64,000 bases of DNA from the NCBI RefSeq assembly GCF_964355755.1, contig NC_092676.1, positions 19,300,871 through 19,364,870 of the forward strand, read 5' to 3'. This DNA comes from Antedon mediterranea. Its lineage: Eukaryota; Animalia; Echinodermata. How positions within the stretch are numbered: the stretch's first letter is position 1; every line of letters begins with the position of its first letter. The notes below the pieces were generated by a model that was not told where the DNA came from, did no database searches, and saw only the letters and a list, made by a program, of their open reading frames with translations. Of the stretch, positions 1-64,000 are shown in pieces. A program made the position numbers and the translations under genes.

Positions 1-729
1 TCTACTTCCAGAATCTGAAATTTTAAATATTTTCACCTCGGAGTTTAGAATCTATGACTTTTTAAAAAAAGGCATAATTTTCAAAAATTTTTGAACTTTT
101 TCATCAAAAACGCGCGCAAATTGTTCAATTCTACGTGCTCGTATGACGTGATTTTAAGTCGAAATTGATTGAAAATTGGTAAATGTACTAGAAAAGGCTG
201 AAAAAACAAAAATCAAGCAAAAAAAAGACGTTTTTGCACTACGTGCGCACGCGCGCGTAAAAAATATGCGCACGCGTGGGAATTTTTGAAATGCTCAAAA
301 TGACCTGAAACGCGTAGAAAGTTGATTAGAAATGAATTTTTCGCAATTTGAAATTTTAAACGCGCGTGCGCGCGTAACTTTATGTCAAACATGCCATTTT
401 TAATCCATAGAAAGTTTTCCCTTGATATGACTTAAATGTTCACCAAGTGTCATTACAAAATGACTTTTGCTTTTTAGTCTATGTTAAATACGCGAAATTC
501 ATAAAATCGCGCGTAGCTTACGCTGCGCGACTCTAAAGTAAAAAAACGAGCTGTCCTGCACTTCTACACATAGAGGTAAATCTTCTGACAAAGTTATACG
601 ATGTAATGTTGATCAGAATTTGAGATACACGTGACACAAAATTTTGGGAAAGAAAGAAGAATAACATAGAAAAAAAAAAAAAAGATCCTGACAATAACAA
701 GAGGTTATCCGCCAAGAGCGGATAACCAA
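1..729 (-). mobile_element. Family A element, cut by window edge, head intact
   Basis: Body plus head GGTTATCCGC-caaga-GCGGATAACC-AA ending at 729. Confidence 0.8.
703..729 (-). other. Representative 5' head hairpin (10-bp stem, 5-nt loop) and terminal TT
   Basis: GGTTATCCGC-caaga-GCGGATAACC-AA on + strand. Confidence 0.85.
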
Positions 730-772
730 CTAGATTTGAACTCGTCACTACGGACGAGTTAGGTTATCCGCA
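730..772 (-). other. Representative 3' terminus: subTIR, 8-bp hairpin, 5 nt, CTAG
   Basis: CTAG-ATTTG-AACTCGTC-actacg-GACGAGTT-A-GGTTATCCGCA on + strand; Helitron-type CTRR end with a subterminal hairpin. Confidence 0.85.
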
Positions 773-1877
773 GTCCTAAAGCCACGTGCACGTCATACGT
801 TGGAATATTGCGCGCAGAAAAACGATTATGCCATTGAAAAAAATGTTAGTGAGCCCTCTATTTTGTGTCACGTCTAAGTATATACGGTATACGCTATATA
901 CTGTATACGTACTACATACAGTTCAGAATAGGTGAAAATAAGTGACCAAAGTTATTGACGCTTTTGCAAATGATGACATCATAACAATCTTAAAAATTGT
1001 TAACCATGCGAAAGATAATTGATTGACCTAGACAATATAACAAAATGGGGGGAAATGGAATGCGGATAAGTAGAGATGCGCTCTATTAAATGTGATGAGC
1101 TATGCGAAAGAGACAAAAATCCTATATTTTATATTCAAGTGGCCATACGATGACATCACAATGTCCGGTTAGCCATATTGATGCATGATTTGATATCTGC
1201 AACTCATCTGCTACCAGAATATGTAATTATAAAAAAGTTCACCACGTAGTTTAGAATCTATGATTGTTTAAAAAAAGGCATAATTTTGACAAATTTTTGA
1301 ACTTTTTCATCAAAAATGCGCGTAAATTGTTTAATTCTACGTGCTCGTATGACGTGATTTTAAGTCGAAATTGTTTGAAAGTTGGTAAATTTACTAAAAA
1401 AGACAGGAAAAACAAAAATCAAGCAAAAAAATTATGTTTTTGCGCTACGTGCGCACGCGCGCGTAAAAAAATTGCGCACGCGTGGGAATTTTTCAAATGC
1501 TCAAAATGACATAAAACGCGTAGAAAGTTGATTAGAAATTGATTTTTCGCATTTTGAAATTTTAAACGCGCGTGCACGCGTAACTTTTTGTAAAACATGC
1601 CATTTTTAATCCATAGAAAGTTTGCGCTTGATATGACTTAAATTTTCACCAAGTTTCATTACAAAATGACTTTTGATTTCTAAGCTATGATCAATCATTG
1701 AAATTCATAAAATCGCGCGTAACTTACGCTGCGCGACTCTAAAGTTAAAAAACGAAACGTCCTGCACATCTACAGCTAGAGGTCAACCTTATGACAAAGT
1801 TACACAATCTTATATTGGCCAGAATTAGAGATACGCTGCGAACAAAATTCCGGGAAAGAAAGAAGAATAAGATAGAA
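730..1877 (-). mobile_element. Family A element, headless (interrupted in A-tract)
   Basis: CTAG at 730; ends GATAGAA then next CTAG at 1878. Confidence 0.8.
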
Positions 1878-3024
1878 CTAGATTTGAACTCGTCACTACG
1901 GACGAGTTAGGTTATCCGCAGCGCAAAAGCCACGTGCACGTCATACATTAGAATATTGCGCGCAAAAAAACGATAAAAATGTTAGTGCGCTCTCGATTTT
2001 GCGTCACGTCTAAGTATATACGGTATAACACTATATACTGTATACGTACTACATACAGTGCAGAATAGGTGAAAATAAGTGACCAAAGTTATTGACGCAT
2101 TTGAACATGATGACGTCATCACAATTTTAAAAATGGTGAATCATGGGAAAGATAATTGATTGACCTAGACAATAATAAAAAAAATGATGGAATTGGAACA
2201 CGGATAAAGGAGATGCGCTCTATTAAATGTGACGAGCTATGACGAAAGAGAAAAAAATCCTATATTTCATATTCGAGTGACCAAACGATGACGTCACAAT
2301 GTCCGGTTAGCCATATCGATACATGATTCTACATCTACAACTCATCAACTTTCAGAATGTCTAATTTAAAAAAAGTTCACCTCGTAGTTTACAATCTATG
2401 ACTGTTTTAAAAAAGACATAATTTTGACGAATTTTTGAACTTTTTCTTCAAAAACGCGCGCAAATTGTTCAATTCTACGTGCTCGTATGACGTGATTTTA
2501 AGTCGAAATTGATTGAAAATTGGTAAATTTACTAGAAAAGGCTGTAAAAACAAAAATCAAGCAAAAAAAAGATGTTTTTGCGCTACGTGCGCACGCGCGC
2601 GTAAAAAAATGCGCACGCGTGGGAATTTTTGAAATTCTCAAAATGACCGGAAACGCGTAGAAAGTTGATTAGAAATTGATTTTACGCATTTTGAAATTTT
2701 AAACGCGCGTGCGAGCGTAACTTTCTGTAAAACATGCCATTTTTAATCCATACAAAGTTTTCAGTTGATATGACTTAAATTTTCACTAAGTTTCAAAACA
2801 AAATGAGTTCTAGTTTTTAATCTATGATCAATCATTGAAATTCATAAAATCGCACGTAACTTACGCTGCGCGACTCTAAAGTCAAAAAACGAAACGTCCT
2901 GCACATCTACAGCTACGGATCAATCTTATGACAAAGTTACACAATCTTATGTTCTCCAAAATTAGAGATACGCTGCGAACAAAATTCCGGGAAAGAAAGA
3001 AGAATAAGATAGAAAAAAAAAAAA
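1878..3024 (-). mobile_element. Family A element, headless
   Basis: CTAG at 1878; ends in A-run before CTAG 3025. Confidence 0.8.
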
Positions 3025-4176
3025 CTAGATTTGAACTCGTCACTACGGACGAGTTAGGTTATCCGCAGCGCAAAAGCCACGTGCACGTCGTACGTTAGAA
3101 TATTGCGGGCAAAAAAACGATTATGGCATTGAAAAAATGTTAGTGCGCTCTCTATTTTGTGTCAAGTCAAAGTGTATACGGTATACACTATATACTGTAT
3201 ACGTACTACGTACAGTGCAGAATAGGTGAAAATAAGTGACCAAAGTTATTGACGCTTTTGGACATGATGACGTCATCACAATTTTTAAAATGGTGAATCA
3301 TGCGAAAGATAATTGATTGACCTAGACAATATAAAAAAATGGAGGGCAATGGAATACGGATAAGTGGAGATGCGCTCTATTAAATGTGATGAGCTATACG
3401 AAAGAGAAAAAAATCCTATATTTTATATTCCAGTGGCCATACGATGACGTCACAATGTCCTGTTAGCCATATTGATACATGATTCGATATCTACAACTCA
3501 TCTACTACCAGAATATGTAATAATAAAAAAGTTTACCACGTAGTTTAGAATCTATGACTGTTTAAAAAAAGGCATAATTTTGACAAATTTTTGGACTTTT
3601 TCATCAAAATTGCGCGCAAATTGTTTAATTCTACGTGCTCGTATGACGAGATTTTAAGGCAAAATTGATTGAAAATTGGTAAATTTATTATAAAAGACAG
3701 AAAAAACAAAAATCAAGCAAAAAAAAGATGTTTTTGCTCTACGTGCGCACGCGCGCGTAAGAAAATTGCGCACGCGTGGGAATTTTTGAAATGCTCAAAA
3801 TGACATGAAACGCGTAGAAAGTTGATTAGATATTGATTTTTCGCATTTTGAAATTTTAAATACGCGTGCGCGCGTAAATTTTTATGAAACATGCCATTTT
3901 TAATCCATAGAAAGTTTGCGCATTATATGACTTAAATGTTCACCAAGTTTCAATACAAAACGACTTTTAGTTTTTATTCTATGATCAATCATTGAAATTC
4001 ACAAAATCGCGCGTAACTTACGCTGCGCGACTCGAAATTTGAAAAAAAAAGTTTCTTACACATCTACAGCTACAGGGCAATCTTTTGACAAAGTTATACA
4101 ATCATATGTTGGCCAGAATTAGAGATACGCTGCGCACAAAAAATGGGGGAGAAGGGTGGAAGGAAACAAATAAATA
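3025..4176 (-). mobile_element. Family A element with variant purine-rich end (AAATAAATA), no head hairpin
   Basis: Ends GGGGGAGAAGGGTGGAAGGAAACAAATAAATA|CTAG. Confidence 0.75.
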
Positions 4177-5382
4177 CTAGACTTGAACTCGTCACTTCGG
4201 ACGAGTTAGGTTATCCGCAGCGCAAAGGCCACGTGCACGTCATACGTTAGAATATTGCGCGCAGAAAAACGATTATGCCATTGAAAAAATGTTAGTGCGC
4301 TCTCTATTTTGTGTCACGTCAAAGTATATACGGTATACGCTATATTCTGTATACGTACTACATACAGTGCAGAATAGGTGAAAATAAGGGACCCAAGTTA
4401 TTGACGCTTTTGGACATAATGACGTCATCACAATTTAAAAAATTCTAGATCATGCGAAAGATAATTGATTGGCCTAGACAATATAACAAAATGGGAGGAA
4501 ATGGAATACGGATAAGTGGAGATGCGCTCTATTAAATGTGATGAGCTATGCGAAAGAGACAAAAATCCTATATTTTATATTCGAGTGGCCATACGATGAC
4601 GTCACAATGTCCGCTTAGCCATATGGATGCATGATTTGATATCTACAACTCATCTACTTCCAGAATCTGAAATTTTAAAAATGTTCACCACGGAGTTTAG
4701 AATATATGACTTTTTAAAGAAAGGCATAATTTTCACGAATTTTTGAACTTTTTCATCAAAAACACGCGCAAATTTTTCAATTCTACGTGCTCATATGACG
4801 TGATTTTAAATCGAAATTGATTGAAAATTGGTAAATTTACTAGAAAAGGGTGGAAAAACAAAAATCAAGCAAAAAAAAGATGTTTTTGCGCTACGTGCGC
4901 ACGCGCGCGTAAAAAAATTGCGCACGCACGGGAATTTTTGAAATGCTCAAAATGACCTGAAACGCGTAGAAAGTTGATTAGAAATAAATTTTACGCATTT
5001 TGAAATTTTAAACGCGCGTGCGCGCGTAATTTTCTGTAAAACATGCCATTTTTAATCCATACAAAGTTTGCAGTAGATATGACTTAAATTTTCACTAAGT
5101 TTCAAAACAAAATGACTTCTAGTTTTTAATCTATGATCAATCATTGAAATTCATAAAATCACACGTAACTTACGCTGCGCGACTCTAAAATCAAAAAACG
5201 AAACGTCCTGCACATCTACAGCTACGTGTCAATCTTATGACAAAGTTACACAATCTTATGTTCACCAGAATTAGAGATACGCTGCGAACAAAATTCCGGG
5301 AAAGAAAGAAGAATAAGATAGAAAAAAAAAAAAAAAGATCCTGACAATAACAAGGGGTTATCCGCCAAGTGCGGATAACCAA
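4177..5382 (-). mobile_element. Family A element, complete; followed by orphan head 5383-5431
   Basis: CTAG 4177 to GGATAACCAA 5382, then second AAAGATCC...GGATAACCAA. Confidence 0.82.
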
Positions 5383-5431
5383 AAAGATCCTGACAATAAC
5401 AAGGGGTTATCCGCCAAGTGCGGATAACCAA

Positions 5432-6637
5432 CTAGATTTGAACTCGTCACTTCGGACGAGTTAGGTTATCCGCAGCGCAAAAGCCACGTGCACGTCATAC
5501 GTTAGAATATTGCGCGCAGAAAAACGATTACGCCATTGAAAAAATGTTAGTGCGTTCTCTACTTTGCGTCACGTCTAAGTGTATACGGTATACACTATAT
5601 ACTGTATACGTACTACATACAGTGCAGAATAGGTGAAAAGAAGTTACCAAAGTTATTGACGCTTTTGAACATGATGACGTAATAACAATTAAAAAAATTA
5701 TAAATCATGCGAAAGATAATTGATTGACCTAGACAAAATAAAAAATTTGAGGGAAATGGAATACGCATAAGTGGAGATGCGCTCTATTAAATGTGACTAG
5801 CTATGACGAAAGAGACAAAAATCCTATATTTCATATTCGAGTGGCCATATGATGACGTCACAATGTCCGGTTAGCCATATTCATGCATGATTTGATATCT
5901 ACAATTCATTTACTTCCAGAATCTGAAATTTTAAAAAAGTTCACCACGGAGTTTAGAATCTATGACAGTTTAAAAAAAGGCATAATTTTGACAAATTTTT
6001 GAACTTTTTCATCAAAAATGCGCGCAAATTGTTTAATTCTACGTGCTCGTATGACGTGATTTTAAGTCGAAATTGATTTAAAATTGATAAATTTACTAGA
6101 AAAGGCTGAAAAAACAAAAATCAAGCAAAAAAAAGATGTTTTTGCGCTAGGTGCGCACGCGCGCGTAAAAAAATTGCGCACGCCTGCGAATTTTTGAAAT
6201 GCTCAAAATGACATGAAACGCATAGAAAGTTGATTAGAAATTAATTTTTTGCATTTTTAAATTTTAAACGCGCGTGCGCGCGTAACCTTTTGTGAAACAT
6301 GCCATTTTTAATCCATAGAAAGTTTGCGCATAATATGACTTAAATTTTCACCAACTTTCAATACAAAATGACTTTCAGTTTTTATTCTATGATGAATCAT
6401 TGAAATTCATAAAATCGCGCGTAACTTACGCTGCGCGACACGAAATTTGAAAAAAAAAGTTTCTTGCACATCTACAGCTACAGGGCAATCTTTAGACAAA
6501 GTTATACAATCATATGTTGCCCAGAATTAGAGATACGCTGCGAACAAAAATCGTGGAAAGAAAGAAGAAAATAGAAGAAAAAGAAAAAAAAGATCCTGAC
6601 AATAACAAGGGGTTATCCGCCAAGTGCGGATAACCAA
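5432..6637 (-). mobile_element. Family A element, complete
   Basis: Both termini; residual A-run 6638-6643. Confidence 0.82.
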
Positions 6638-6643
6638 AAAAAA

Positions 6644-7863
6644 CTAGATTTGAACTCGTCACTACGGACGAGTTAGGTTATCCGCAGCGCAAAAGCCACG
6701 TGCACGTCATACGTTAGAATAGTGCGCGCAAAAAAATAAAACGATTATGGCATGCATTGAAAAATGTTAGTGCGCTCTCTATGTTGCGTCGCGTCTAAGT
6801 ATATACGGTATAACACTATATACTGTATACGTACTACATACAGTGCAGAATAGGTGAAAATAAGTGACCAAAGTTATTGACGCATTTGAACATGATGACG
6901 TCATCACAATTTTTAAAATGGTGGATCATGCGAAAGGTAATTGATTGATCTAGACAATATAAAAAAATTGAGTGAAATGGAATAAGGATAAGTAGAGATG
7001 CGCTCTATTAAATTGACGAGCTATGACGAAAGAGAAAAAAATCCTATATTTTATATTCGGGTGGCCATACGATGACGTCACAATGTCTGGTTAGCCATAT
7101 CAATGCATGATTCGAGAAAAACAACTCATCTACTTCCAGAATCGGAAATTTTAAATATTTTCACCTCTGAGTTTAGAATCTATGACTTTTTAAAAAAAGG
7201 CATAATTTTCACAAATTTTTGAACTTTTTCATCAAAAACGCGCGCAAATTGTTCAATTCTACGTGCTCGTATGACGTGATTTTAAGTCGAAATTCATTGA
7301 AAATTGGTAAATGTACTAGAAAAGGCTGAAAAAACAAAAATCAAGCAAAAAAAAGATGTTTTTGCGCTACGTGCGCACGCGCGCCTAAAAAATATGCGCA
7401 CGCGTGGGAATTTTTGAAAAGCTCAAAATGACCTGAAACGCGTAGAAAGTTGATTAGAAATGAATTTTTCGCAACTTGAAATTTTAAACGCGCGTGCGCG
7501 CGTAACTTTATGTCCAACATGCCATTTTTAATCCATAGAAAGTTTGCCCTTGATATGACTTAAATGTTCACCAAGTGTCATTACAAAATGACTTTTGCTT
7601 TTTAGTCTATGTTAAATACGCGAAATTCATAAAATCGCGCGTAGCTTACGCTGCGCGACTCGAAATTCAAAAAAAAAAGTTTGTTGCACATCTACAGCTA
7701 CAGAGCAATCTTTTGACAAAGTTATACAATCATATGTTGGCCAAAATTAGAGATACGCTGCGAACAAAAATCGTGGAAAGAAAGAAGAACATAGAAAAAA
7801 AAAAAGAAAAAAAAAAAGATCCTGACAATAACAAGGGGTTATCCGCCAAGTGCGGATAACCAA
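6644..7863 (-). mobile_element. Family A element, complete
   Basis: Both termini; residual AAAGAAAAAA 7864-7873. Confidence 0.82.
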
Positions 7864-7873
7864 AAAGAAAAAA

Positions 7874-9092
7874 CTAGATTTGAACTCGTCACTACGGACG
7901 AGTTAGGTTATCCGCAGTCCTATAGCCACGTGCACGTCATACGTTGGAATATTGCGCGCAGAAAAACGATTAAGTAATTGAAACAATTTCAGCGTGCTCT
8001 TTATTTTTCGTCACGTCTGAGTATATACGGTATACACTATATACTGTATACGTACTACATACAGTGCAGAATAGGTGAAAATAAGTGACCAAAGTTATTG
8101 ACGCTTTTGAACATGATGACGTCATCACAATTTTTAAAATGGTGAATCGTGCGAAAGATAATTGATAGACCTAGACAACATAAAAAAAATGGGGGGAAAT
8201 GGAATACAAATAAGTGGAGATGCGCTATATTAAATGTGACGAGCTACGAGGAAAGAGACAAAAATCCTATATTTTATATTCGAGTGGCCATATGATGACG
8301 TCACAATGTCCGGTTAGCCATATTGATGCATGATTTGATATCTGCAACTCATCTACTACCAGAATATGTAATTATAAAAAAGTTCACCACGTAGTTTAGA
8401 ATTTATGACTGTTTAAAAAAAGGCATAATTTTGACTAATTTTTGAACTTTTTCATCAAAAATGCGCGTAAATTGTTTAATTCTACGTGCTCGTATGACGT
8501 GATTTTAAGTCGAAATTGTTTGAAAGTTGGTAAATTTTCTAAAAAAGATAGGAAAAACAAAAATCAAGCAAAAAAATGATGTTTTTGCGCTACGTGCGCA
8601 CGTGCGCGTAAAAAAATTGCGCACGCGTGGGAATTTTTGAAATGCTCAAAATGACATGAAACGCGTAGAAAGTTGATTAGATATTGATTTTTCGCATTTT
8701 GAAATTTTAAACGCGCGTGCGCGCGTAACATTTTGTAAAACATGCCATTTTTAATCCATAGAAAGTTTGCGCATTATATGACTTAAATGTTCACCAAGTT
8801 TCAATACAAAATGAATTTTAGTTTTTAATCTATGATCAATCATTGAAATTCATAAAATCGCGCGTAACTTACGCTGCGCGACTCGAAATTCATAAAAAAA
8901 AGTTTCTTGCACATCTACAGCTACAGGGCAATCTTATGACAAAGTTATACAATCATTTGTTAGCCAGAATTAGAGATATGCTTGCAACAAAATTCGTGGA
9001 AAGAAAGAAGAAAAAAGAAAAAAAAGAAAAAAAATAAAAAAAAAAAGATCCTGACAATAACAAGGGGTTATCCGCCAAGTGCGGATAACCAA
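7874..9092 (-). mobile_element. Family A element, complete; orphan head 9093-9141
   Basis: Both termini plus second head. Confidence 0.82.
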
Positions 9093-9141
9093 AAAGATCC
9101 TGACAATAACAAGAGGTTATCCGCCAAGTGCGGATAACCAA

Positions 9142-10284
9142 CTAGATTTGAACTCGTCACTTCGGACGAGTTAGGTTATCCGCAGCGCAAAGGCCACGTG
9201 CACGTCATACGTTAGAATATTGCACGCAGAAAAACGATTATGCCATTGAAATAATGTTAGTGCGCTCTCTATTTTGCGTCACGTCAAAGTATATACGGTA
9301 TACGCTATATTCTGTATACGTACTACATACAGTGCAGAATAGGTGAAAATAAGGGACCCAAGTTATTGACGCTTTTGCACATGATGACGTCATCACAATT
9401 TAAAAAATGGTAGATTATGTGAAAGATAATTGATTGGCCTAGACAATATAACAAAATGGGGGGAAATGGAATACGGATAAGTGGCGATGCGCTCTATTAA
9501 ATGTGATGAGCTATGCGAAAGAGACAAAAATCCTATATTTTATATTCGAGTGGCCATACGATGACGTCACAATGTCCGGTTAGCCATATCGATGCATGAT
9601 TTGATATTTACAACTTATCTACTTCCAGAATCTGATATTTTAAAAATTTTCACCTAGGAGTTTAGAATCTATGACTTTTTAAAAAAAGGCATAATTTTCA
9701 CGAATTTTTGAACTTTTTCATCAAAAACGCGCTCAAATTGTTCAATTCTACGTGCTCGTATGACGTGATTTTAAGTTGAAATTGTTTGAAAGTTGGTAAA
9801 ATTACTAGAAAAGGCTAAAAAAACAAAAATCAAGCCAAAAAAACATGTTTTTGCCTTATTTGCGCACGCGCGCGTAAAAAAATTGCGCACGCTTGGGAAT
9901 TTTTGAAATGCTCAAAATGACATGAAACGCGTAGAAAGTTGATTAGAAATGAATTTTGCGCATTTTGAAATTTTGAACGCGCGTGCGCGCGTAACTTTAT
10001 GTAAAACATGCCATTTTTAATCCATACAAAGTTTGCGCATGATATAACTTAAATTTTCACCAAGTTTCAATAGAAAATGACTTTTTGTTTTTAATCTATG
10101 ATCAATCATTGAAATTCATAAAATTGCGCGTAACTTACGCTGCGCGACTCAAAATTCATAAAAAAAAGTTTCTTGCACATCTACAGCTACAGGGCAATCT
10201 TTTGACAAAGTTATACAATCATATGTTGGCCAGAGCTAGAGATACGCTGCGAACAAAATTCGTGGAAAGAAAGAAGAACATAGA

Positions 10285-10315
<31 letters not shown>

Positions 10316-10361
10316 GATCCTGACAATAACAAGAGGTTATCCGCCAAGTGCGGATAACCAA
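9142..10361 (-). mobile_element. Family A element, complete; orphan head 10362-10410
   Basis: Both termini plus second head. Confidence 0.82.
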
Positions 10362-10410
10362 AAAGATCCTGACAATAACAAGGGGTTATCCGCCAAGTGC
10401 GGATAACCAA

Positions 10411-11565
10411 CTAGATTTGAACTCGTCACTACGGACGAGTTAGGTTATCCGCAGTGCAAAAGCCACGTGCACGTCATACGTTAGAATAGTGCGCGCAAAA
10501 AAATAAAACGATTATGGCATTGAAAAATGTTAGTGCGCTCTCTATGTTGCGTCGCGTCTAAGTATATACGGTATAACACTATATACTGTATACGTACCGT
10601 ACTACATACAGTGCAGAATAGGTGAAAATAAGTGACCACAGTTATTGACGCATTTGAACATGATGACGTCATCACAATTTTTAAAGTGGTGGATCATGCG
10701 AAAGGTAATTGATTGATCTAGACAATATAAAAAAATTGAGTGAAATGGAATAAGGATAAGTAGAGATGCGCTCTATTAAATTGACGAGCTATGACGAAAG
10801 AGAAAAAAATCCTATATTTTATATTCGGGTGGCCATACGATGACGTCACAATGTCTGGTTAGCCATATCAATGCATGATTCGAGAAAAACAACTCATCTA
10901 CTTCCAGAATCTGAAATTTTAAATATTTTCACCTCGGAGTTTAGAATCTATGACTTTTTAAAAAAAGGCATAATTTTCACAAATTTTTTAACTTTTTCAT
11001 CAAAAACGCGCGCAAATTGTTCAATTCTACGTGCTCGTATGACGTGATTTTAAGTCGAAATTGATTGAAAATTGGTAAATGTACTAGAAAAAACTGAAAA
11101 AACAAAAATCAAGCAAAAAAAAGATGTTTTTGCGCTACGTGCGCACGCGCGCGTAAAAAATATGCGCACGCGTGGGAATTTTTGAAATGCTCAAAATGAC
11201 CTGAAACGCGTAGAAAGTTGATTAGAAATGAATTTTTCGCAATTTGAAATTTTAAACGCGCGTGCGCGCGTAACTTTATGTCAAACATGCCATTTTTAAT
11301 CCATAGAAAGTTTGCCCTTGATATGACTTAAATGTTCACCAAGTGTCATTACAAAATGACTTTTGCTTTTTAGTCTATGTTAAATACGCGAAATTCATAA
11401 AATCGCGCGTAGCTTACGCTGCGCGACTCTAAAGTAAAAAAACGAGCTGTCCTGCACTTCTACACATAGAGGTAAATCTTCTGACAAAGTTATACGATGT
11501 AATGTTGATCAGAATTTGAGATACACGTGACACAAAATTTTGGGAAAGAAAGAAGAATAACATAG

Positions 11566-11596
<31 letters not shown>

Positions 11597-11640
11597 TCCT
11601 GACAATAACAAGAGGTTATCCGCCAAGTGCGGATAACCAA
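10411..11640 (-). mobile_element. Family A element, complete (dominant subtype)
   Basis: Both termini; residual A-run 11641-11655. Confidence 0.82.
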
Positions 11641-13185
11641 AAAAAAAAAAAAAAACTAGACATGAAACTCGTCACTTTGACGAGTTAGTTATCCGCACGA
11701 CAAACGCCACGTGCACGTCATACGTTGGAATATTGCACAGAGATAAAAATTATGGCATTATGACCTGAACTGAAGAATATCATACGTTTTTAGTGCTGAA
11801 TTCAGTCTATTTTGTGTCATATAGTATATACATGCAAACAGTATAATCTGTATACATTATTACATACAGTGTAGAATAGGTGAAATTACGGAACCCCCAA
11901 TTTATTCAAATTTTTAACATGGTTAAGGTATCAAAATGAAACACTAAGATAGAAATTTCGGGAGGAAATTATCTCAGTAACAACATATTAACGTGTAAAA
12001 GAAATTCGAATACGTGAAATATTGATGCGCGTTCTTTTAAATGTAATGAATGATGACGCAAAATATGAAAATACGACATTTTTTATTTAACTGGCCATAT
12101 GATGACGTCACAACATGCGATTGGCAAAATGTTGACAGGATTTCGTATCTACAATCCAATAGCTTCCAGAAAATGTTTAATCGTGATTATCACATTTTAT
12201 TCTTACGAGCTACAACAGATAAAAATTTACTGTAAAGATGAAATTAATGACCCACGTAATTAAAATTTTTAGGCATGATGACCTCATAAAAATTTAAATA
12301 TTTTTAACTTGTGCGAAAGATAGTTGATTTACCTAGACAATATCAAAATCGGCGTGAAAATGGAAAACTGATAAGTGGCGATGCGTTCTACTAAATGTGA
12401 TGAGCTATGACGAAAGATACAAAAATCCTAAATTTTATATTCACGTGGCCATACGATGACGTCACAATGTCCGGTTAGCCATAAAAATACATGATCCGAT
12501 ATCTACAACTCATCAACTTCCAGAATTTGTCATCCACAAAAAGTTGATCGTGTAGTTTAGAAATTATGACTATTTAAAAAAAGGCATAATTTTGACAAAT
12601 TTTTGAACTTTTTCATCAATAACGCGCGCAAATTGTCCAATTCGACGTGCTCGTATGACGTAACTTTAAGTCGAAATTGTTTAAAAGTTGGTAAAATTAC
12701 TAGAAAAGGCTGGACAAATATAAATCACGCGAAAAAAATATGTTTTTAATGCTACGTGCGCACCACACACGTAAAAATTTGCGCACGCGTGGGAATTTTT
12801 GACATGCTTAAAATGACATGAAACTCGTAGAAAATTGAATAGAAATTAATTTTGCGCATTTTAAAATTTTAAATGCGCGTGCACGCGTAACTTTGTTTAA
12901 AACACGCAATTTTTTTTAACAGGAAGTTAGCGCATGACACAAATTAAACTTTTGCAAAGTTTCAGTTTAAAATCTTTTATGGTTTTCGATCTATGTTAAA
13001 TACGCGAAATTCATAAAATCGCACGTAAGTCACGTTGCACAACTCTGACGTCATTAAAAAATAGGAGGTGCACAAGTTCACGTAAATGCCCACATGTTGT
13101 CAAAGGTATGAAATGTTATGTTTACACATTTTAGAGAAACGCTCTACACAAAAATAGCGAGAAAGAAAGAAGAATAATACAGAAA

Positions 13186-14776
13186 CTAGACATGTAACTC
13201 GTCACTTTGACGAGTTAGTTATCCGCACGACAAACGCCACGTGCACGTCATACGTTAGAATATTGCACACAGAAAAAATTATGGCATTATGACCTGATCT
13301 GAAGAATACGATATGTTGTTAGTGCTGAATTCTGTCAATTTTATGTCATATAGTATATACATGCAAACAGTATAATCTGTATACATGTTACATACAGTGT
13401 AGAATAGGTGAAATTACGGGACCCGCCATTTATTCAAATTTGTAAAAACATGGCGACGGTATCAAGATGAAACACTAAGATAGCAATTTCGGAAGCAAAT
13501 TATCTCAGCAACAACATATTAACGTGTAGAAGAAATTTGAATACGTTTAATATTGATGCGCGCTCTTTTAAATATAATGAACTATGATGCAAAAGATGAA
13601 AATACGACTTTTTTTATTTAACTGGCAATATGATGACGTCACAGCATCTGATTGGCAAAATGTTCACAGGATTTCATATCTACAATCCAAGAGCTTCCAG
13701 AAAATGTTTTAATCGTGATTATCACATTTTATTTTGACGAGCTATTACAGATTAAAATTTACTGTAAAGATGAAATTAATGACCCACGTAATTAAAATTT
13801 TTAGGCATGATGACGTCATAAAAATTAAAATATTTTTATCTCATGCGAAAGATAGTTGATTGACCTAGACAATATTAAAATCTCGGAGAAAAAGAAATAC
13901 GTATAAGCGTGATGCGCTCCATTGAATGTGATGAGCAATAACGAAAGACAAAAAAATCCTATATTTTACATTCGTGTGGCCATATGATGACGTCACAACA
14001 TCCGTGAGGTAAAAATTCTGCATGAATTCATATCTACAACATATCTGCTTACATATTAAGTTAAAAAAATTAGGGGTAATCGTTGATCTTGAGAAGCTAT
14101 AAAACATTCAAAATAGGCATAATTTTGACAACATTTTGTAACTTTTTCAACTAAAACGCGCGCAAATGGGCTAAATCAACGTGTTCGTATGACGTAATTT
14201 TAATTTGAAATGATGTCAATCTTTTTGAAAATGACTAGGAAAGGCTGGAAAATCACAATTCAAGAGAAAAAAACATGATTTTCATGCTCTATGCGCACCG
14301 TGCGCGTAATATTTTTCGCGCGCGCGGTAATTTTGTACATGCTTAAAATGACATGAAACGCGTAGAAAGTTGATTAGAAATTATTTTTGCGCATTTTGAA
14401 ATTTTAAATGCGCGTGCGCGCGTAACTTTGTGTAAAACACGCAATTTTTTTCAAACAGAAAGTTAGCGCATGATATAAATTAAACTTTCACAAAGTGTCA
14501 ATTAAAAATCACTTTTAGTTTTTAATCTATGATCAATCATAAAAAATCATAAAATCGCGCGTAAGTCACGTTACGCAACTCTGACGTAATTCAAAAATAG
14601 GAGGTGCAGAACTTCACGTAAATGCCCACATGTTGTCAAAGTTATAAAATGTTATGTTTACACATTTTAGAGAAACGCTCTACACAAAAATAGCGAGAAA
14701 GAAAGAAGAATAATACAGAAAAAAATATTGATCCCATACAATAACAAGGAGTTATCCGCCAAGTGCGGATAACTAA
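13186..14776 (-). mobile_element. Family B element, complete
   Basis: CTAGACATGTAACTCGTCACTTTGACGAGTTAGTTATCCGCAC ... AGTTATCCGC-caagt-GCGGATAACT-AA. Confidence 0.83.
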
Positions 14777-16299: not shown

Positions 16300-16444
16300 C
16301 TAGACATGTAACTCGTCACTTTGACGAGTTTGGTTATCCGCCGCGCAAGTGGTGCAACATTAACATTAAGGGGATAGGTTGAGGACAAAAGGAAGTGTTC
16401 ACGTTGGCATTATGACCTGAACTGAAGAATATGATATGTTGTTA

Positions 16445-27227: not shown

Positions 27228-27313
27228 AAATAAAAAGATGAGATGATGATTTCGTACAATCACAAGAGGTTATCCTGCAACTTCGTTGCGGATAACCAAA
27301 AATAAAAAGATGA

Positions 27314-38334: not shown

Positions 38335-38393
38335 AAAAATATTGATCCCATACAATAACAAGGAGTTATCCGCCAAGTGCGGATAACTAATAA

Positions 38394-39981: not shown

Positions 39982-40106
39982 AAAGTTGATGTTGATGATG
40001 ATTTCGTACAATCACAAGAGGTTATCCTGCAACTTCGTTGCGGATAACCAAAAAATATTGATCCCATACAATAACAAGGAGTTATCCGCCAAGTGCGGAT
40101 AACTAA

Positions 40107-45986: not shown

Positions 45987-45990
45987 AAAA

Positions 45991-47199: not shown

Positions 47200-47254
47200 A
47201 AAAAAAAAGATCCTGACAATAACAAGAGGTTATCCGCCAAGTGCGGATAACCAA

Positions 47255-50729: not shown

Positions 50730-51939
50730 CTAGATTTGAACTCGTCACTACGGACGAGTTAGGTTATCCGCATCGCAAAACCCACGCGCATGACACCTAA
50801 GTTAGAATATTGCGCGCAGAAAAACGATTATGCCATTGAAAAAATGTTAGTGAGCCCTCTATTTTGTGTCGCATCTAAGTGTGTACGGTATACACTATAT
50901 ACTGTATACGTACTACATACAGTGCAGAATAGGTGAAAATAAGTGACCAAAGTTATTGACGCATTTGAACATGAAGACGTCATCACAACTTTAAAAATGG
51001 TGAATCATGCGAAAGATAATTGATTGATCTAGACAATATAAAAAAATTGAGTGAAATGGAATAAAGATAAGTAGAGATGCGCTCTATTAAATTGACGAGC
51101 TATGACGAAAGAGAAAAAAATCCTATATTTTATATTCGGGTGGCCATACGATGACGTCACAATGTCCGGTTAGCCATATCAATGCATGATTCGAGAAAAA
51201 CAACTCATCTACTTCCAGAATATGTAATTTTAAAAAAGTTCACCACGTAGTTTAGAATTTATGACTGTTTAAAAAAAGGTCTAATTTTGACGATTTTTTG
51301 AAGTTTTTCATCAAAAACACGCGCAAATTATCCAATTCTACGTGCTCGTGTGACGTGATTTTAAGTCGAAATTGATTGAAAATTTATAAATTTACTAGAA
51401 AAGGCTGAAAAAACAAAAATCAAGCAAAAAAAAGATGTTTTTGCGCTACGTGCGCATGCGCGCGTAAAAAATTTGCGCACGCGTGGGAATTTTTGAAATG
51501 CTCAAAATGACATGAAACGCATAGAAAATTGATTAGAAATTGATTTTTCGCATTTTGAAATTTTAAACGCGCGTGCGCGCGTAACTTTTTGTGAAACATG
51601 CCATTTTTAATCCATAGAAAGTTTGCGCATGATATGACTTAAATTTTCACCAAGTTTCAATGCAAAATGATTCTTAGTTTTTATTCTATGATCAATCATT
51701 GAAATTTATAAAATCGCGCGTAACTTACGCTGCGCGACACGAAATTCAAAAAAAAAAGTTTCTTGCACATCTACAGCTACAGGGCAAACTTTTGACAAAG
51801 TTATACAATCATATGTTGGCCAGAATTAGAGATACGCTGCGAACAAAAAACGTGGAAAGAAAGAAGAAAATAGAAGAAAAAAGAGAAAAAAAAGATCGTG
51901 ACAATAACAAGGGGTTATCCGCCAAGTGCGGATAACCAA
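50730..51939 (-). mobile_element. Family A element, complete
   Basis: Both termini. Confidence 0.82.
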
Positions 51940-53154
51940 CTAGATTTGAACTCGTCACTACGGACGAGTTAGGTTATCCGCAGCGCAAAGGCCACGTGCA
52001 CGTCATACGTTAAAATATTGCGCGCAGAAAAACGATTAAGTAATTGAAACAATTTCAGCGTGCTCTTTATTTTTCGTCACGTCTGAGTATATACGGTATA
52101 CACTATATACTGTATACGTACTACATACAGTGCAGAATAGGTGAAAATAAGTGAACAAAGTTATTGACGCTTTTGAACATGATGACGTCATCACAATTTT
52201 TAAAATGGTGAATCGTGCGAAAGATAATTAATAGACCTAGACAACATAAAAAAAATGGGGAGAAATGGAATACATATAAGTGGAGATGCGCTATATTAAA
52301 TGTGACGAGCTACGAGGAAAGAGACAAAAATCCTATATTTTATATTCGAATGGCCATACGATGACGTCACAATGTCTGGTTAGCCATATTGATGCATGAT
52401 TTGATATCTGCAACTCATCTACTACCAGAATATGTAATTATAAAAAAGTTCACCACGTAGTTTAGAATTTATGACTGTTTAAAAAAAGGCATAATTTTGA
52501 CTAATTTTTGAACTTTTTCATCAAAAATGCGCGTAAATTGTTTAATTATACGTGCTCGTATGACGTGATTTTGAGTCGAAATTGTTTGAAAGTCGGTAAA
52601 TTTTCTAAAAAAGACAGGAAAAACAAAAATCAAGCAAAAAAATGATGTTTTTGCGCTACATGCGCACGTGCGCGTAAAAAAATTGCGCACGCGTGGGAAT
52701 TTTCGAAATGCTCAAAATGACATGAAACGCGTAGAAAGTTGATTAGATATTGATTTTTCGCAATTTAAAATTTTAAACGCGCGTGCGCGCGTAACTTTTT
52801 GTGAAAAATGCCATTTTTAATCCATAGGAAGTTTGCGCATTATATGACTTAAATGTTCACCAAGTTTCAATACAAAACGACTTTTAGTTTTTATTCTATG
52901 ATCAATCATTGAAATTCACAAAATCGCGCGTAACTTACGCTGCGCAACTCCAAAATCGTCCAAAAGCTTGGCTGCACATCTACAGCTATAGGTCAATCTT
53001 ATGACAAAGTTATACAATCTTATGTTGGCCAGAATTAGAGATATGCGACCAACAAAATTCGTGGAAAGAAAGAAGAACATAGAAAAAAAAAAAAAAAAAA
53101 AAAAAAAAGATCCTGACAATAACAAGGGGTTATCCGCCAAGTGCGGATAACCAA
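51940..53154 (-). mobile_element. Family A element, complete
   Basis: Both termini. Confidence 0.82.
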
Positions 53155-54364
53155 CTAGATTTGAACTCGTCACTACGGACGAGTTAGGTTATCCGCAGTG
53201 CAAAAGCCACGTGCACGTCATACGTTAGAATAGTGCGCGCAAAAAAATAAAACAATTATGGCATTGAAAAATGTTAGTGCGCTCTCTATGTTGCGTCGCG
53301 TCTAAGTATATACGGTATAACACTATATACTGTATACGTACTACATACAGTGCAGAATAGGTGAAAATAAGTGACCAAAGTTATTGACGCATTTGAACAT
53401 GATGACGTCATCACAATTTTTAAAATGGTGGATCATGCGAAAGGTAATTGATTGATCTAGACAATATAAAAAAATTGAGTGAAATGGAATAAGGATAAGT
53501 AGAGATGCGCTCTATTAAATTGACGAGCTATGACGAAAGAGAAAAAAATCCTATATTTTATATTCGGGTGGCCATACGATGACGTCACAATGTCTGGTTA
53601 GCCATATCAATGCATGATTCGAGAAAAACAACTCATCTACTTCCAGAATCTGAAATTTTAAATATTTTCACCTCGGAGTTTAGAATCTATGACTTTTTAA
53701 AAAAAGGCATAATTTTCACAAATTTTTGAACTTTTTCATCAAAAACGCGCGCAAATTGTTCAATTCTACGTGCTCGTATGACGTGATTTAAAGTCGAAAT
53801 TGATTGAAAATTGGTAAATGTACTAGAAAAGGCTGAAAAAACAAAAATCAAGCAAAAAAAAGATGTTTTTGCACTACGTGCGCACGCGCGCGTAAAAAAT
53901 ATGCGCACGCCTGGGAATTTTTGAAATGCTCAAAATGACCTGAAACGCGTAGAAAGTTGATTAGAAATGAATTTTTCGCAATTTGAAATTTTAAACATGC
54001 GTGCGCGCGTAACTTTATGTCAAACATGCCATTTTTAATCCATAGAAAGTTTGCCCTTGATATGACTTAAATGTTCACCAAGTGTCATTACAAAATGACT
54101 TTTGCTTTTTAGTCTATGTTAAATACGCGAAATTCATAAAATCGCGCGTAGCTTACGCTGCGCGACTCTAAAGTAAAAAAACGAGCTGTCCTGCACTTCT
54201 ACACATAGAGGTAAATCTTCTGACAAAGTTATACGATGTAATGTTGATCAGAATTTGAGATACACGTGACACAAAATTTTGGGAAAGAAAGAAGAATAAC
54301 ATAGAAAAAAAAAAAAAAGATCCTGACAATAACAAGAGGTTATCCGCCAAGAGCGGATAACCAA
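53155..54364 (-). mobile_element. Family A element, complete; two orphan heads 54365-54419 and 54420-54470
   Basis: Three heads in tandem. Confidence 0.82.
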
Positions 54365-54470
54365 AAAAAAAAAGATCCTGACAATAACAAGAGGTTATCC
54401 GCCAAGAGCGGATAACCAAAAAAAGATCCTGACAATAACAAGAGGTTATCCGCCAAGAGCGGATAACCAA

Positions 54471-56834: not shown

Positions 56835-59800
56835 CTAGACTTGAACTCGTCACTACGGACGAGTTAGGTTATCCGCAGCGCAAAAGCCACGTGCACGTCG
56901 TACGTTAGAATATTGCGGGCAAAAAAACGATTATGGCATTGAAAAAATGTTAGTGCGCTCTCTATTTTGTGTCAAGTCAAAGTGTATACGGTATACACTA
57001 TATACTGTATACGTACTACGTACAGTGCAGAATAGGTGAAAATAAGTGACCAAAGTTATTGACGCTTTTGGACATGATGACGTCATCAAAATTTTTAAAA
57101 TGGTGAATCGTGCGAAAGATAATTGATTGACCTAGACAATATAAAGAAATGGAGGGCAATGGAATACGGATAAGTGGAGATGCGCTCTATTAAATGTGAT
57201 GAGCTATACGAAAGAGAAAAAAATCCTATATTTTATATTCCAGTGGCCATACGATGACGTCACAATGTCCTGTTAGCCATATTGATACATGATTCGATAT
57301 CTACAACTCATCTACTACCAGAATATGTAATAATAAAAAAGTTTACCACGTAGTTTAGAATCTATGACTGTTTAAAAAAAGGCATAATTTTGACAATTTT
57401 TTGGACTTTTTCATCAAAATTGCGCGCAAATTGTTTAATTCAACGTGCTCGTATGACGAGATTTTAAGGCAAAATTGATTGAAAATTGGTAAATTTATTA
57501 TAAAAGACAGAAAAAACAAAAATCAAGCAAAAAAAAGATGTTTTTGCGCTACGTGCGCACGCGCGCGTAAGAAAATTGCGCACGCGTGGGAATTTTTGAA
57601 ATGCTCAAAATGACATGAAACGCGTAGAAAGTTGATTAGATATTGATTTTTCGCATTTTGAAATTTTAAATACGCGTGCGCGCGTAAATTTTTATGAAAC
57701 ATGCCATTTTTAATCCATAGAAAGTTTGCGCATTATATGACTTAAATGTTCACCAAGTTTCAATACAAAACGACTTTTAGTTTTTATTCTATGATCAATC
57801 ATTGAAATTCACAAAATCGCGCGTAACTTACGCTGCGCGACTCGAAATTTGAAAAAAAAAGTTTCTTGCACATCTACAGCTACAGGGCAATCTTTTGACA
57901 AAGTTATACAATCATATGTTGGCCAGAATTAGAGATACGCTGCGCACAAAAAATGGGGGAGAAGGGTGGAAGGAAACAAATAAATACTAGATTTGAACTC
58001 GTCACTACGGACGAGTTAGGTTATCCGCAGCGCAAAAGCCACGTGCACGTCGTACGTTAGAATATTGCGCGCAAAAAAACGATTATGGCATTGAAAAAAT
58101 GTTAGTGCGCTCTCTATTTTGTGTCACGTCAAAGTGTATACGGTATACACTATACTGTATACGTACTACATACAGTGCAGAATAGGTGAAAATAAGTGAC
58201 CAAAGTTATTGACGCTTTTGGACATGATGACGTCATCACAATTTCTAAAATGGTGAATCATGCGAAAGATAATTGATTGACCTAGACAATATAAAGAAAT
58301 GGAGGGCAATGGAATACGGATAAGTGGAGATGCGCTCTATTAAATGTGATGAGCTATACGAAAGAGAAAAAAATCCTATATTTTATATTCTAGTGGCCAT
58401 ACGATGACGTCACAATGTCCTGTTCGCCATATTGATACATGATTCGATATCTACAACTCATCTACTACCAGAATATGTAATTATAAAAATGTTTACCACG
58501 TAGTTAAGAATCTATGACTGTTTAAAAAAAGGCATAATTTTGACAAATTTTTGGACTTTTTCATCAAAATTGCGCGCAAATTGTTTAATTCTACGTGCTC
58601 GTATGACGAGATTTTAATGCAAAATTGATTGAAAATTGGTAAATTTATTATAAAAGACAGAAAAAACAAAAATCAAGCAAAAAAAAGATGTTTTTGCGCT
58701 ACGTGCGCACGCGCGCGTAAGAAAAGTGCGCACGCCTGGGAATTTTTGAAATGCTCAAAATGACATGAAACGCGTAGAAAATTGATTAGAAATTGATTTT
58801 TCGCATTTTGAAATTTTAAACGCGCGTGCGCGCGTAACTTTCTGTAGAACATGCCATTTTCTCTCCATAAAAAGTTAGCGCATGATATGACTTAAATTTT
58901 CACGAAGTTTCTATACAAAATGACATTTAGTTTTTATTCTATGATCAATCATTGAAATTCATAAAATCGCGCGTAACTTACGCTGCGCGATTCAAAATTT
59001 ATAAAAAAAAGTTTCTTGCACATCTACATCTACAGGGCAATCTTTTGACAAAGTTATACAATCATATGTTGGACAGAATTAGAGATACGCTGCGAACAAA
59101 AAATGGGGGAGAAGGGTGTAAAGAAAGAAATAAATACTAGATTTGAACTCGTCACTACGGACGAGTTAGGTTATCCGCAGCGCAAAGGCCACGGGCACGT
59201 CATACGTTAGAATATTGCGCGCAGAAAAACCATTAAGTCATTGAAACAATTTCAGTGTGCTCTCTATTTTTCGTCACGTCTGAATATATACGGTATACGC
59301 TATATACTGTATACGTACTACATACAGTGCAGAATAGGTGAAAATAAGTGACCAAAGTTATTGACGCTTTTGGACATGATGACGTCATCACAATTTCTAA
59401 AATGGTTAATCATGCGAAAGATAATTGATTTACCTAGACAATATAAAGAAATGGAGGGCAATGGAATACGGATAACCGGAGATGCGCTCTATTAAATGTG
59501 ATGAGCTATACGAAAGAGAAAAAAATCCTATATTTTATATTCGAGTAGCCATACGATGACGTCACAATGTCCTGTTAGCCATATTGATACATGATTCGAT
59601 ATCTACAACTCATCTACTACCAGAATATGTAATTACAAAAAAGTTCACCACGTAGTTTAGAATCTATGACTGTTTAAAAAAAAGCATAATTTTGACAAAT
59701 TTTTAGACTTTTTCATCAAAATTGCGCGCAAATTGTTTAATTCTACGTGCTCGTATGACGAGATTTTAAGGCAAAATTGATTGAAAGTTGATAAATTTAT

Positions 59801-60288
59801 TATAAAAGACAGAAAAAACAAAAATCAAGCAAAAAAAAGATGTTTTTGCGCTACGTGCGCACGTGCGCGTAAGAAAAGTGCGCAAGCGTGGGAATTTTTG
59901 AAATGCTCAAAATGACATGAAACGCGTAGAAAGTTGATTAGAAATTGATTTTTCGCATTTTGAAATTTTAAACGCGCGTGCGCGCGTAACTTTTTGCGAA
60001 ACCTGCCATATTTAATCTACAGAAAGTTTGCGCTTTATATGACTTAAATTTTCACCAAGTTTCAATACAAAATGACTTTTGGTTTTTAATCTATGATCAA
60101 TAATTGAAATTCATAAAATCGCGCGTAACTTACGCTGCGCGACTCGAAATTTGAAAAAAAAAGTTTCTTGCACATCTACAGATATAGTGCAATCTTTTGA
60201 CAAAGTTATACAATCTTCTGTTGGCTAGAATTAGAGATACGCTGCCCACAAAAAATGGGAGAGAAGTGTGGAAAGAAAGAAATAAATA
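56835..60288 (-). mobile_element. Three consecutive family A elements with variant AAATAAATA end (56835-57986, 57987-59136, 59137-60288)
   Basis: Each ends AAATAAATA|CTAG. Confidence 0.78.
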
Positions 60289-61501: not shown

Positions 61502-62719
61502 CTAGATTTGAACTCGTCACTACGGACGAGTTAGGTTATCCGCATCGCAAAACCCATGCGCATGACACCTAAGTTAGAATATTGCGCGCAGAAAAACGAT
61601 TATGCCATTGAAAAAATGTTAGTGAGCCCTCTATTTTGTGTCGCGTCTAAGTGTGTACGGTATACACTATATACTGTATACGTACTACATACAGTGCAGA
61701 ATAGGTGAAAATAAGTGACCAAAGTTATTGACGCATTTGAACATGATGACGTCATCACAATTTTAAAAATGGTGAATCATGCGAAAGATAATTGATTGAT
61801 CTAGACAATATAAAAAAATTGAGTGAAATGGAATACGGATAAGTGGAGATGCGCTCTATTAAATTTGACGAGCTATGACGAAAGAGAAAAAATCCTATAT
61901 TTTATATTCGGGTGGCCATACGATGATGTCACAATGTCCGGTTAGCCATACCAATGCATGATTCGAGAAAAACAACTCATCTACTTCCAGAATATGTAAT
62001 TTTAAAAAAGTTCACCACGTAGTTTAGAATTTATGACTGTTTAAAAAAAGGTCTAATTTTGACGATTTTTTGAAGTTTTTCATCAAAAACACGCGCAAAT
62101 TATCCAATTCTACGTGCTCGTGTGACGTGATTTTAAGTCGAAATTGATTGAAAATTCCTAAATTTACTAGAAAAGGCTGAAAAAACAAAAATCAAATTTA
62201 AAAAAAGATGTTTTTGCGCTACGTGCGCATGCGCGCGTAAAAAAATTGCGCACGCGTGGGAATTTTTGAAATGCTCAAAATGACATGAAACGCATAGAAA
62301 GTTGATTAGAAATTGATTTTTCGCATTTTGAAATTTCAAACGCGCGTGCGCGCGTAACTTTTTGTGAAACATGCCATTTTTAATCCATAGAAAGTTTGCG
62401 CATGATCTCACTTAAATTTTCACAAAGTTTCAATACAAAACAACTTTTAGTTTTTATTCTATGATCAATCATTGAAATTCATGAAATCGCGCGTAACTTA
62501 CGCTGCGCAACTCCAAAATCGTCCAAAAGCTTGGCTGCACATCTACAGCTATAGGTCAACCTTATGACAAAGTTATACAATCTTATGTTGGCCACAAGAT
62601 AGAGATGTGCTGCGAACAAAATTCGGGGAAAGAAAGAAGAATAACATAGAAAAAAAAAAAAAAAAAAAAAAAAGATCCTGACAATAACAAGGGGTTATCC
62701 GCCAAGTGCGGATAACCAA
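61502..62719 (-). mobile_element. Family A element, complete
   Basis: Both termini. Confidence 0.82.
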
Positions 62720-63927
62720 CTAGATTTGAACTCGTCACTACGGACGAGTTAGGTTATCCGCAGCGCAAAAGCCACGTGCACGTCATACGTTGGAATATTG
62801 CGCGCAGAAAAACGATTATGCCATTGAAAAAAATGTTAGTGCGCCCTCTATTTTGCGTCACGTCTGAGTATATACGGTATACACTATATACTGTATACGT
62901 ACTACATACAGTGCAGAATAGGTGAAAAGAAGTGACCAAAGTTATTGACGCTTTTGAACATGATGACGTCATAACAATTTTAAAAATGGTAAATCATGCG
63001 AAAGATAATTGATTGACCTAGACAAAATAAAAAAATTGAGGGAAATGGAATACGGATAAGTGGAGATGCGCTCTATTAAATGTGACGAGCTATGACGAAA
63101 GAGAAAAAAATCCTATATTTTATATTCGGGTGGCCATACGATGACGTCACAATGTCTGGTTAGCCATATCAATGCATGATTCGAGAAAAACAACTCATCT
63201 ATTTCCAGAATCTGAAATTTTAAATATTTTCACCTCGGAGTTTAGAATCTATGACTGTTTTAAAAAAGGCATAATTTTGACGAATTTTTGAACTTTTTCT
63301 TCAAAAACGCGCGCAAATTGTTCAATTCTACGTGCTCGTATGACGTGATTTTAAGTCGAAATTGATTGAAAATTGGTAAATGTACTAGAAAAGGCTGAAA
63401 AAACAAAAATCAAGCAAAAAAAAGATGTTTTTGCGCTACATGCGCACGCGCGCGTAAAAAATATGCGCACGCGTGGGAATTTTTGAAATGCTCAAAATGA
63501 CCTGAAACGCGTAGAAAGTTGATTAGAAATGAATTTTTCGCAATTTGAAATTTTAAACGCGCGTGCGCGCGTAACTTTATGTCAAACATGCCATTTTTAA
63601 TCCATAGAAAGTTTGCCCTTGATATGACTTAAATGTTCACCAAGTGTCATTACAAAATGACTTTTGCTTTTTAGTCTATGTTAAATACGCGAAATTCATA
63701 AAATCGCGCGTAGCTTACGCTGCGTTACTCTAAAGTAAAAAAACGAGCTGTCCTGCACTTCTACACATAGAGGTAAATCTTCTGACAAAGTTATACGATG
63801 TAATGTTGATCAGAATTTGAGATACACGTGACACAAAATTTTGGGAAAGAAAGAAGAATAACATAGAAAAAAAAAAAAAAAGATCCTGACAATAACAAGA
63901 GGTTATCCGCCAAGTGCGGATAACCAA
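62720..63927 (-). mobile_element. Family A element, complete
   Basis: Both termini; residual A-run to 63937. Confidence 0.82.
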
Positions 63928-63937
63928 AAAAAAAAAA

Positions 63938-64000
63938 CTAGATTTGAACTCGTCACTACGGACGAGTTAGGTTATCCGCAGTGCAAAAGCCACGTGCACG
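63938..64000 (-). mobile_element. Family A element 3' terminus, cut by window edge
   Basis: CTAG, hairpin and subTIR present. Confidence 0.78.

Follow-up and report, generated by a model that had tools for sequence, protein, structure and literature searches.

We analysed a 64,000-nt window of the Antedon mediterranea genome (GCF_964355755.1, NC_092676.1, positions 19,300,871-19,364,870, position 1 being the first letter of the stretch), the whole of which consists of stacked non-coding copies of HINE/HLE2-type (Helentron-like) elements. The array is likely to be a stack of such elements that grew by repeated independent insertions, inner copies interrupting outer ones and leaving no target duplication. 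These non-autonomous elements fill positions 1-64000 on the minus strand (as do all elements, tails and hosts named below unless stated otherwise), with 48 tails and 38 heads, and the array extends past both window ends. Motif scans scored the 3' ends (CTAG plus stem-loop) 46 times on the + strand and twice on the - strand (18042, 19563), while 37 of the 5' heads read on the + strand (23 H1, 5 H2, 9 H3) and one was inverted (16447). The tail motifs gave 18 and 30 matches in the window compared to none in 100 shuffles. A first-pass annotation of the same letters had every unit starting with CTAG and a hairpin on the + strand, which holds for 46 of the 48 units, the two inverted tails being the exceptions. 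The window is AT-rich (GC 0.33-0.36) and only four stop-to-stop frames of at least 100 aa (100-120 aa) occur in the 64 kb. No Rfam match was found in positions 1-20000 (20 of the 64 kb searched), and motif scans of metagenome contigs and viral contigs returned no matches, including for an autonomous partner with the same termini.

Every element, read on its own strand, is laid out as TT, a 10-bp subterminal inverted repeat (subTIR), an inverted repeat, a simple-sequence T-rich tract, the body, a second subTIR, a stem-loop and CTAG. An intact element of the B1 family (53155-54364; 1210 bp), which belongs to a young subfamily diverged by about 1%, carries a head (54319-54364) in which the TT is followed by a 10-bp subTIR that forms a 10-bp stem with its inverted repeat (z -7.9), and a tail (53155-53204) made up of the subTIR, the stem-loop, 7-8 nt and CTAG. 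An intact B2 element (20943-22533; 1591 bp) has a family-specific base change in the subTIR that is matched at head and tail, and an intact B3 element (28857-30458; 1602 bp) has a GAT-repeat tract behind its head. The subTIR pair is a perfect 10 bp in all three families (1 bp shorter than the published HINE range of 11-15 bp), the head hairpins have z-scores of -5.0 to -7.9 across families, and the stem-loop after the 3' subTIR has stems of 8-10 bp, lies 9-10 nt from the end and has z-scores of -1.9 to -2.9. All 37 heads on the + strand end in AA and all 46 CTAG ends on that strand are preceded by A, giving an element unit of 5'-TT...CTAG-3' located before a T.

The first-pass annotation had called these elements Helitron-type. 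The 3' end agrees with a canonical Helitron (HLE1), since 48 of 48 tails are a hairpin followed by CTAG, but the 5' end is TT plus a subTIR and not TC without terminal inverted repeats. SubTIRs at both ends, a 5' inverted repeat, a 3' stem-loop, a T-rich target and no coding capacity are instead the features of the HINE/DINE-1 layout described in PMC4067079 and PMC7492417 and named HLE2 in PMC11417382. Judged by termini and target site, the elements would thus be HINE/HLE2-type and not canonical TC...CTRR Helitrons.

The bodies sort into three families with 73-80% identity between families over most of their length. B1 accounts for 30 tails and 29 complete bodies of about 1.15 kb (pairwise divergence 0.5-14%), B2 for five bodies of about 1.54 kb and B3 for 13 bodies of 1.51-1.55 kb (pairwise divergence 1.2-4.6%). 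No two bodies are identical, the lowest divergence between any two being 0.5%. Many units had been said to lack a head, and 21 bodies do end without one (20 on the + strand, plus 19563). They stop, as had also been claimed, at varied offsets in the A-rich tract, except for five B1 bodies, designated B1g, which share one offset. B2 and B3 bodies also contain an old internal repeat of about 140-170 bp with 68-72% identity (seen in 20943-22533 and 36744-38334).

Direct evidence for insertion came from three copies lying in the bodies of others, all of which excise (with TT...CTAG removed) to the exact sister sequence. An inverted composite on the + strand with one head, two bodies and two CTAG tails (16445-19563) interrupts the body of B3 16300 at an A|T site; a B3 copy (22600-24163) lies at an A|T site in B3 22534, 66 bp from the 3' end of its host; and a B1 copy (42278-43494) interrupts the body of B1 41254 at a T|T site. 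Duplication of a TT target was rejected, as site 22600 has a single T. The absence of target duplication in the earlier proposal is thus supported. Among the 18 cut sites at which both sides could be assigned, 14 were T|T and four A|T (four further tract cuts were omitted because their hosts extend past the window). The tract behind the head, 30-40 nt long, received fifteen of the 18 cuts; by the strictest of the T-richness rules tried it holds 11-32% of available sites, which gives P = 1e-5 at 32%, and in B2/B3 hosts six of eight cuts were in the tract (P = 2e-4). Landing in the tract therefore exceeds T-run availability, as measured within the elements of the window. The claim that each new copy lands in the T-rich tract and pushes the resident head outward would hold for these cuts, but the commonest join between a head and the following CTAG is flush (CTAG|TT), with zero spacer in 17 of 24 cases and none placed between the two terminal Ts.

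Stacked heads had been reported at 5383, 9093, 10362, 27228, 30459, 38335, 39982-40106, 47200 and 54365-54470. All nine sites were found by motif scan, and they yield 11 orphan heads (ending at 5429, 9139, 10408, 27297, 30524, 38388, 40049, 40104, 47252, 54417 and 54468). The array was parsed as a stack, last in and first out by family, with the left piece of each host joined to the pieces at its depth. Ten orphan heads close on hosts inside the window and 10408 belongs to a host to the left. With B1g bodies treated as headless, the rebuilt tract equals that of an intact copy exactly in five of ten hosts and in eight of ten when run lengths are collapsed, significantly more than in same-family shuffles (P = 0.002-0.009 exact; P = 0.0002-0.003 collapsed). 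Orphan-head subtypes also match the open bodies, by host family in last-in-first-out order and by head type in four of five B1 hosts, where the neck tree foretells the type of the orphan head. The depth of nesting reaches five levels of headed hosts. The nested brackets that had been described are thus present as split hosts, most of which re-form, but they are unbalanced by at least seven headless bodies.

The largest nest is a 28.5-kb split host with B2 ends (11656-40106) that encloses all 17 other B2/B3 copies, so that all 18 copies of these families lie in one nest with no B1 inside. Its invariant 7-A tract is re-formed as 3+4 across 27 kb, and that of a second split B2 host within the nest (32089-38390, enclosing B3 33622, B3 36744 and headless 35215) as 2+5. 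In stack order the two B2 hosts yield 7 and 7 A, and crossed pairing would yield 8 and 6. Outside this nest, split B1 host 730 (730-9141) was cut three times and is rebuilt as A11-G-A9, compared to A14-G-A9 in its nearest relative 60289; split host 1878, which lies inside host 730, gives 12+3 = 15 A, as in its sister 4177. Another split B1 host (43626-47254) has a tract of 1+4+9 = 14 A, the modal length, with an orphan head of the same type as that of 10411 and an identical neck. The nested B1 hosts 47255 and 48423 (47255-54470) are closed by a triple head stack (54319-54470), with 48423 rebuilt as 5+9 = 14 A.

The stacked heads had all been taken as nesting products. They are matched in last-in-first-out order, but head 27297 belongs to a perfect 72-bp tandem duplication (27170-27313), which contains a B3 head and whose end coincides with the CTAG of 27314; this head is probably a local duplication instead. 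The rebuilt tracts of B3 hosts 16300 and 22534 fail to match an intact copy, and together with the duplicated head this indicates that one of these two hosts is probably headless. The duplication ends at the insertion point of 27314; that insertion may have produced it, or it may stem from slippage within the GAT repeat. Orphan B1 heads at 5383, 9093 and 10362 share the same 3-A remnant with different head variants, which could mean that one cut position is preferred or that a double head was copied. B3 copies 22600 and 30527, which are sisters, are without the entire T-rich tract behind the head (24100-24161 and 32030-32086), and neither hosts an insertion.

At least seven bodies were headless in the parse: the five B1g, 35215, which is trapped within a closed bracket, and 19563, which is the second half of the inverted one-head composite; 14777 was also skipped. 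One headless B1g (3025-4176) abuts the CTAG of the next copy at a fixed junction, a second (49578-50729) is likewise a passenger, and three stand in a row (56835, 57987 and 59137; 56835-60288), followed by three headed B1 copies with two zero-spacer joins. The B1g junction is constant while the partner varies, including within the first 60 bases of the partner, suggesting that exchange takes place at the CTAG|T junction itself. Inheritance of the junction as one composite family was rejected, since the partners of near-identical B1g bodies differ by 10-11%, already in the terminal 60 bases, and a reading of B1g as a headed hot spot was rejected in the window because it gave worse rebuilds. Headless B3 bodies 14777, 16300 and 35215 stop at a common offset, 17 nt from the tract anchor (next to 16300, 20943 and 36744); 14777 and 16300 are sisters, and these bodies may represent a B3 passenger lineage like B1g, with a matching joint in short-read contigs.

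The best-surviving alternative to self-directed insertion is passive nesting, in which an accessible or tolerated region is entered repeatedly and copies use the longest T-runs without recognition of resident ends. HINEs are known to prefer T-rich sites (PMC4067079; PMC7492417), and the longest T-run (14-29) is indeed in the B1 tract. However, B2 hosts are cut in a 7-T tract even though the body offers 48 similarly T-rich sites, the 17 of 24 flush joins with none between two terminal Ts are not expected of T-run choice, and B2/B3 arrivals passed over longer B1 tracts nearby; a toy urn model places this sorting of the B2/B3 nest at 3e-4 to 4e-9, depending on the assumed host numbers. We regard passive nesting as unlikely.

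Somewhat less probable again is an origin of the flush joins and headless passengers before integration, by the joining of different excised circles or strands into mixed multimers that were inserted together, leaving only the in-tract and in-body events as sequential. The flush join is the circle junction reported for Helraiser, the composite at 16445-19563 demonstrates that multi-body units move, and neighbours of different subfamilies are compatible with such joining. Against this, flush joins link families in nested positions (as where orphan head 40104 meets B1 40107), seven of nine orphan heads with a following CTAG are flush although their hosts were already chromosomal, and the B1g junction is kept while its partner differs within the first 60 bases.

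Helitron arrays are conventionally explained (PMC12628747; bioRxiv 2024.11.21.624632) by construction of a satellite through rolling-circle concatemers or unequal crossover, here with subsequent deletion or local duplication of heads, and the perfect local duplication of one stacked head, the three orphan heads with the same 3-A spacer and the mosaic units could all be fitted to this account. The first-pass annotation had objected that neither process predicts matched split heads. In the array, neighbours are of different subfamilies and are not nearest relatives. Adjacent B1 units in 730-10411 differ by 9.2-11.5% and are not closer than random (P = 0.79 compared to shuffles), nor are B3 neighbours (P = 0.21). 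Long distances separate the closest pairs outside the young subfamily (3025/56835, 0.7% at 54 kb; 49578/59137, 1.1% at 9.6 kb), and no higher-order repeat was found outside that subfamily. Moreover, some stacks mix head families (H3-H2, H2-H3-H2) beyond what local duplication gives, and left and right tract pieces sum to intact length across up to 27 kb. As the main process, concatemers or crossover are largely refuted, and we consider this explanation very improbable. An assembly artefact of a high-copy repeat is barely credible, as all bodies differ (minimum 0.5%), mis-joins would not be expected to leave distant pieces complementary to the exact base, and short-read contigs from one sample contain the same junction types, with just 21-28 letters on the shorter side.

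Coverage of the elements by those contigs is deep (run X7 gives 25,814 on 3.2 kb). The joint from the B3 tract to CTAG was present in all three runs of the sample that were compared, that from the B2 tract to CTAG in X7 and a head-to-head joint in X8, all among the 15 of 158 joints listed. Of ten runs, the four of this sample contain 0.55-0.68 of 441 sampled words; a relationship with the source of the window is possible, so they are not independent of it. Runs X2-X6, whose word shares are small, entered no claim about origin, and X2 had none of the listed joints. The joints support the junction types and not the assembled order.

Several observations weigh against growth by repeated independent insertion. 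No transposase gene lies within the 64-kb window. The null of 2/15 used for zero spacers is a rough assumption. In-silico excision, proposed earlier as a way to re-form hosts, succeeds in eight of ten (five exactly) with the B1g rule, but a naive parse without that rule gives 3/11 exact and 6/11 collapsed matches and is not significant within family (P = 0.06-0.33 compared to the same-family null). The rule itself is post hoc, having been picked after the data were seen; it is supported independently of the parse by the lack of a head on all five B1g bodies (0/5), and also by host 1878 regaining the 15-A tract of sister 4177 and host 730 the G-interrupted tract of sister 60289. The head assigned to host 730 is one base off that of its sister, and the rebuilt tracts of 16300 and 22534, two of the ten, have no counterpart among intact copies. 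Similarity between neighbours is somewhat above the random level in the right B1 block (40107-62720; P = 0.01), an effect of the clustering there of seven of the eight young-subfamily copies. Many B1 units are mosaics, and together with the chimeric host 11656 this indicates that recombination or template switching also shaped the family. In that outermost B2 host (11656-13185) the first 300 and last 100 bases are B2-like and the middle is B3-like, alignment columns 700-1200 differing by 4-13% from B3 compared to 20-36% from B2. Finally, hosts carry more private changes than their guests in only five of nine pairs, with one tie, despite 18 private changes in B2 host 32089 compared to 6-9 in three intact B2 copies. 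Inner copies, which the first-pass annotation proposed to test for closeness to consensus, are thus not reliably younger than their hosts, and the locus records insertion order structurally, through the stack, but undated.

A mechanism of the following kind would account for the array. The HUH transposase of an unseen autonomous partner may have directed insertions to the 5' region of resident copies and to their junctions, its engagement at resident heads and tails turning these into reactive targets. Most nested landings would occur in the T-rich tract just behind the resident head, which is pushed outward, and the commonest landing would be flush at the resident terminus, creating CTAG|TT, the same join as in a transposon circle. 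A copy leaving a nested donor could read through its own 3' end and take the host body along as a headless passenger; the one-head, two-tail composite at 16445-19563 moved as a unit. HUH enzymes cut single strands, and a transposase loaded onto a resident head would leave the T-rich strand exposed, which we propose would explain both the insertion site and the same-orientation bias. Bypass of the 3' end, precise head-to-tail circles and cleavage of single strands only have been shown for Helraiser (PMC4778049), and the mechanism is carried over to an HLE2 element here by analogy. A wider proposal, which we advance tentatively and think somewhat less probable than its opposite, is that the HLE2 transposase prefers to insert, with single-nucleotide precision, into resident copies of its family (at the CTAG|T junction and in the tract behind the head). 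Insertion alone would then produce large nests sorted by family, headless lineages would persist by changing carriers at the junction, and some Helitron satellite arrays credited to concatemers would have formed in this way.

Helitron tandem arrays are usually read as products of concatemers or unequal exchange; here, serial self-insertion with precise joins emerges as a third route, open to base-by-base checking. Target choice by the HLE2 transposase becomes testable from genome sequence, and the parse can be applied to megabase Helitron arrays at centromeres and subtelomeres. It also carries a warning, in that repeat annotators will label such loci satellites or broken elements.

Whether this mode had already been described was left open by the first-pass annotation. 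Its ingredients, self-insertion and abutting Helitrons, are in print: self-insertion was proposed as the source of multiple 5' termini in Fusarium Helitron2-type elements (PMC5148889). We found no array of this scale parsed in this way, nor a report in the open literature of complete HLE2 elements forming a large array that was built up, and can be read, as nested brackets; most subscription papers lay outside the search, and the supplements of PMC5148889 and PMC4778049 may show comparable cases. Clustering of Helitrons beside other Helitrons is cited in PMC4067079 and PMC12477314, composite transposition is reported in PMC4224331 and complex nested Helitron loci in oyster are mentioned in PMC12628747 and PMC11136912. 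In their accessible text, PMC13085455, PMC6581046, PMC13404089 and bioRxiv 10.64898/2026.09.17.752431 present Helitron-rich telomeres or centromeres and nested long terminal repeat centromeres, and not this architecture.

Among long runs, plant centromere arrays (Xiong 2016, cited in PMC12628747) and cnidarian subtelomeres (bioRxiv 2024.11.21.624632) resemble the locus in being tandem-like and of variable unit length, but are explained by concatemers or local propagation; the cnidarian arrays are reported, in the portion available, without a junction-level parse, and the plant arrays combine numerous 5' ends with a single 3' end, whereas here tails outnumber heads and neighbours are unrelated. 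Transposable element dimers formed by double insertion (PMC5932611) likewise seed satellite-like arrays through repeated insertion at one site, but require target-site duplication and expansion by unequal exchange; the Antedon array has no such duplication and no sign that such expansion dominated. The bat Helibat/Helraiser system of HLE1 (PMC4778049) shares 3'-end bypass, precise head-to-tail junctions and natural 5'-to-3' abutments, but has TC...CTAG ends without subTIRs, with abutments that are occasional and not the dominant join, and no local hopping is described in 701 retranspositions. HINE, DINE-1 and Cg_HINE elements (PMC4067079; PMC7492417; PMC11417382) have the same 5' subTIR with a nearby inverted repeat and a simple-sequence tract behind it, the same 3' subTIR and stem-loop, a T-rich target, no target duplication and no coding capacity. 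Our elements differ from them in the fixed 5'-TT and 3'-CTAG and some A|T sites (termini as in proto-Helentron), in the 10-bp subTIR and in having no central satellite array, and the copies described in these papers are dispersed whereas whole elements are stacked here. Fusarium FoHeli (PMC5148889) shares Helitron2-type ends and self-insertion as the explanation for duplicated short 5' termini and composites; the copies described there are dispersed and have two 5' ends, with a single nested case, whereas the Antedon locus is continuous over at least 64 kb, with hosts that can be rebuilt.

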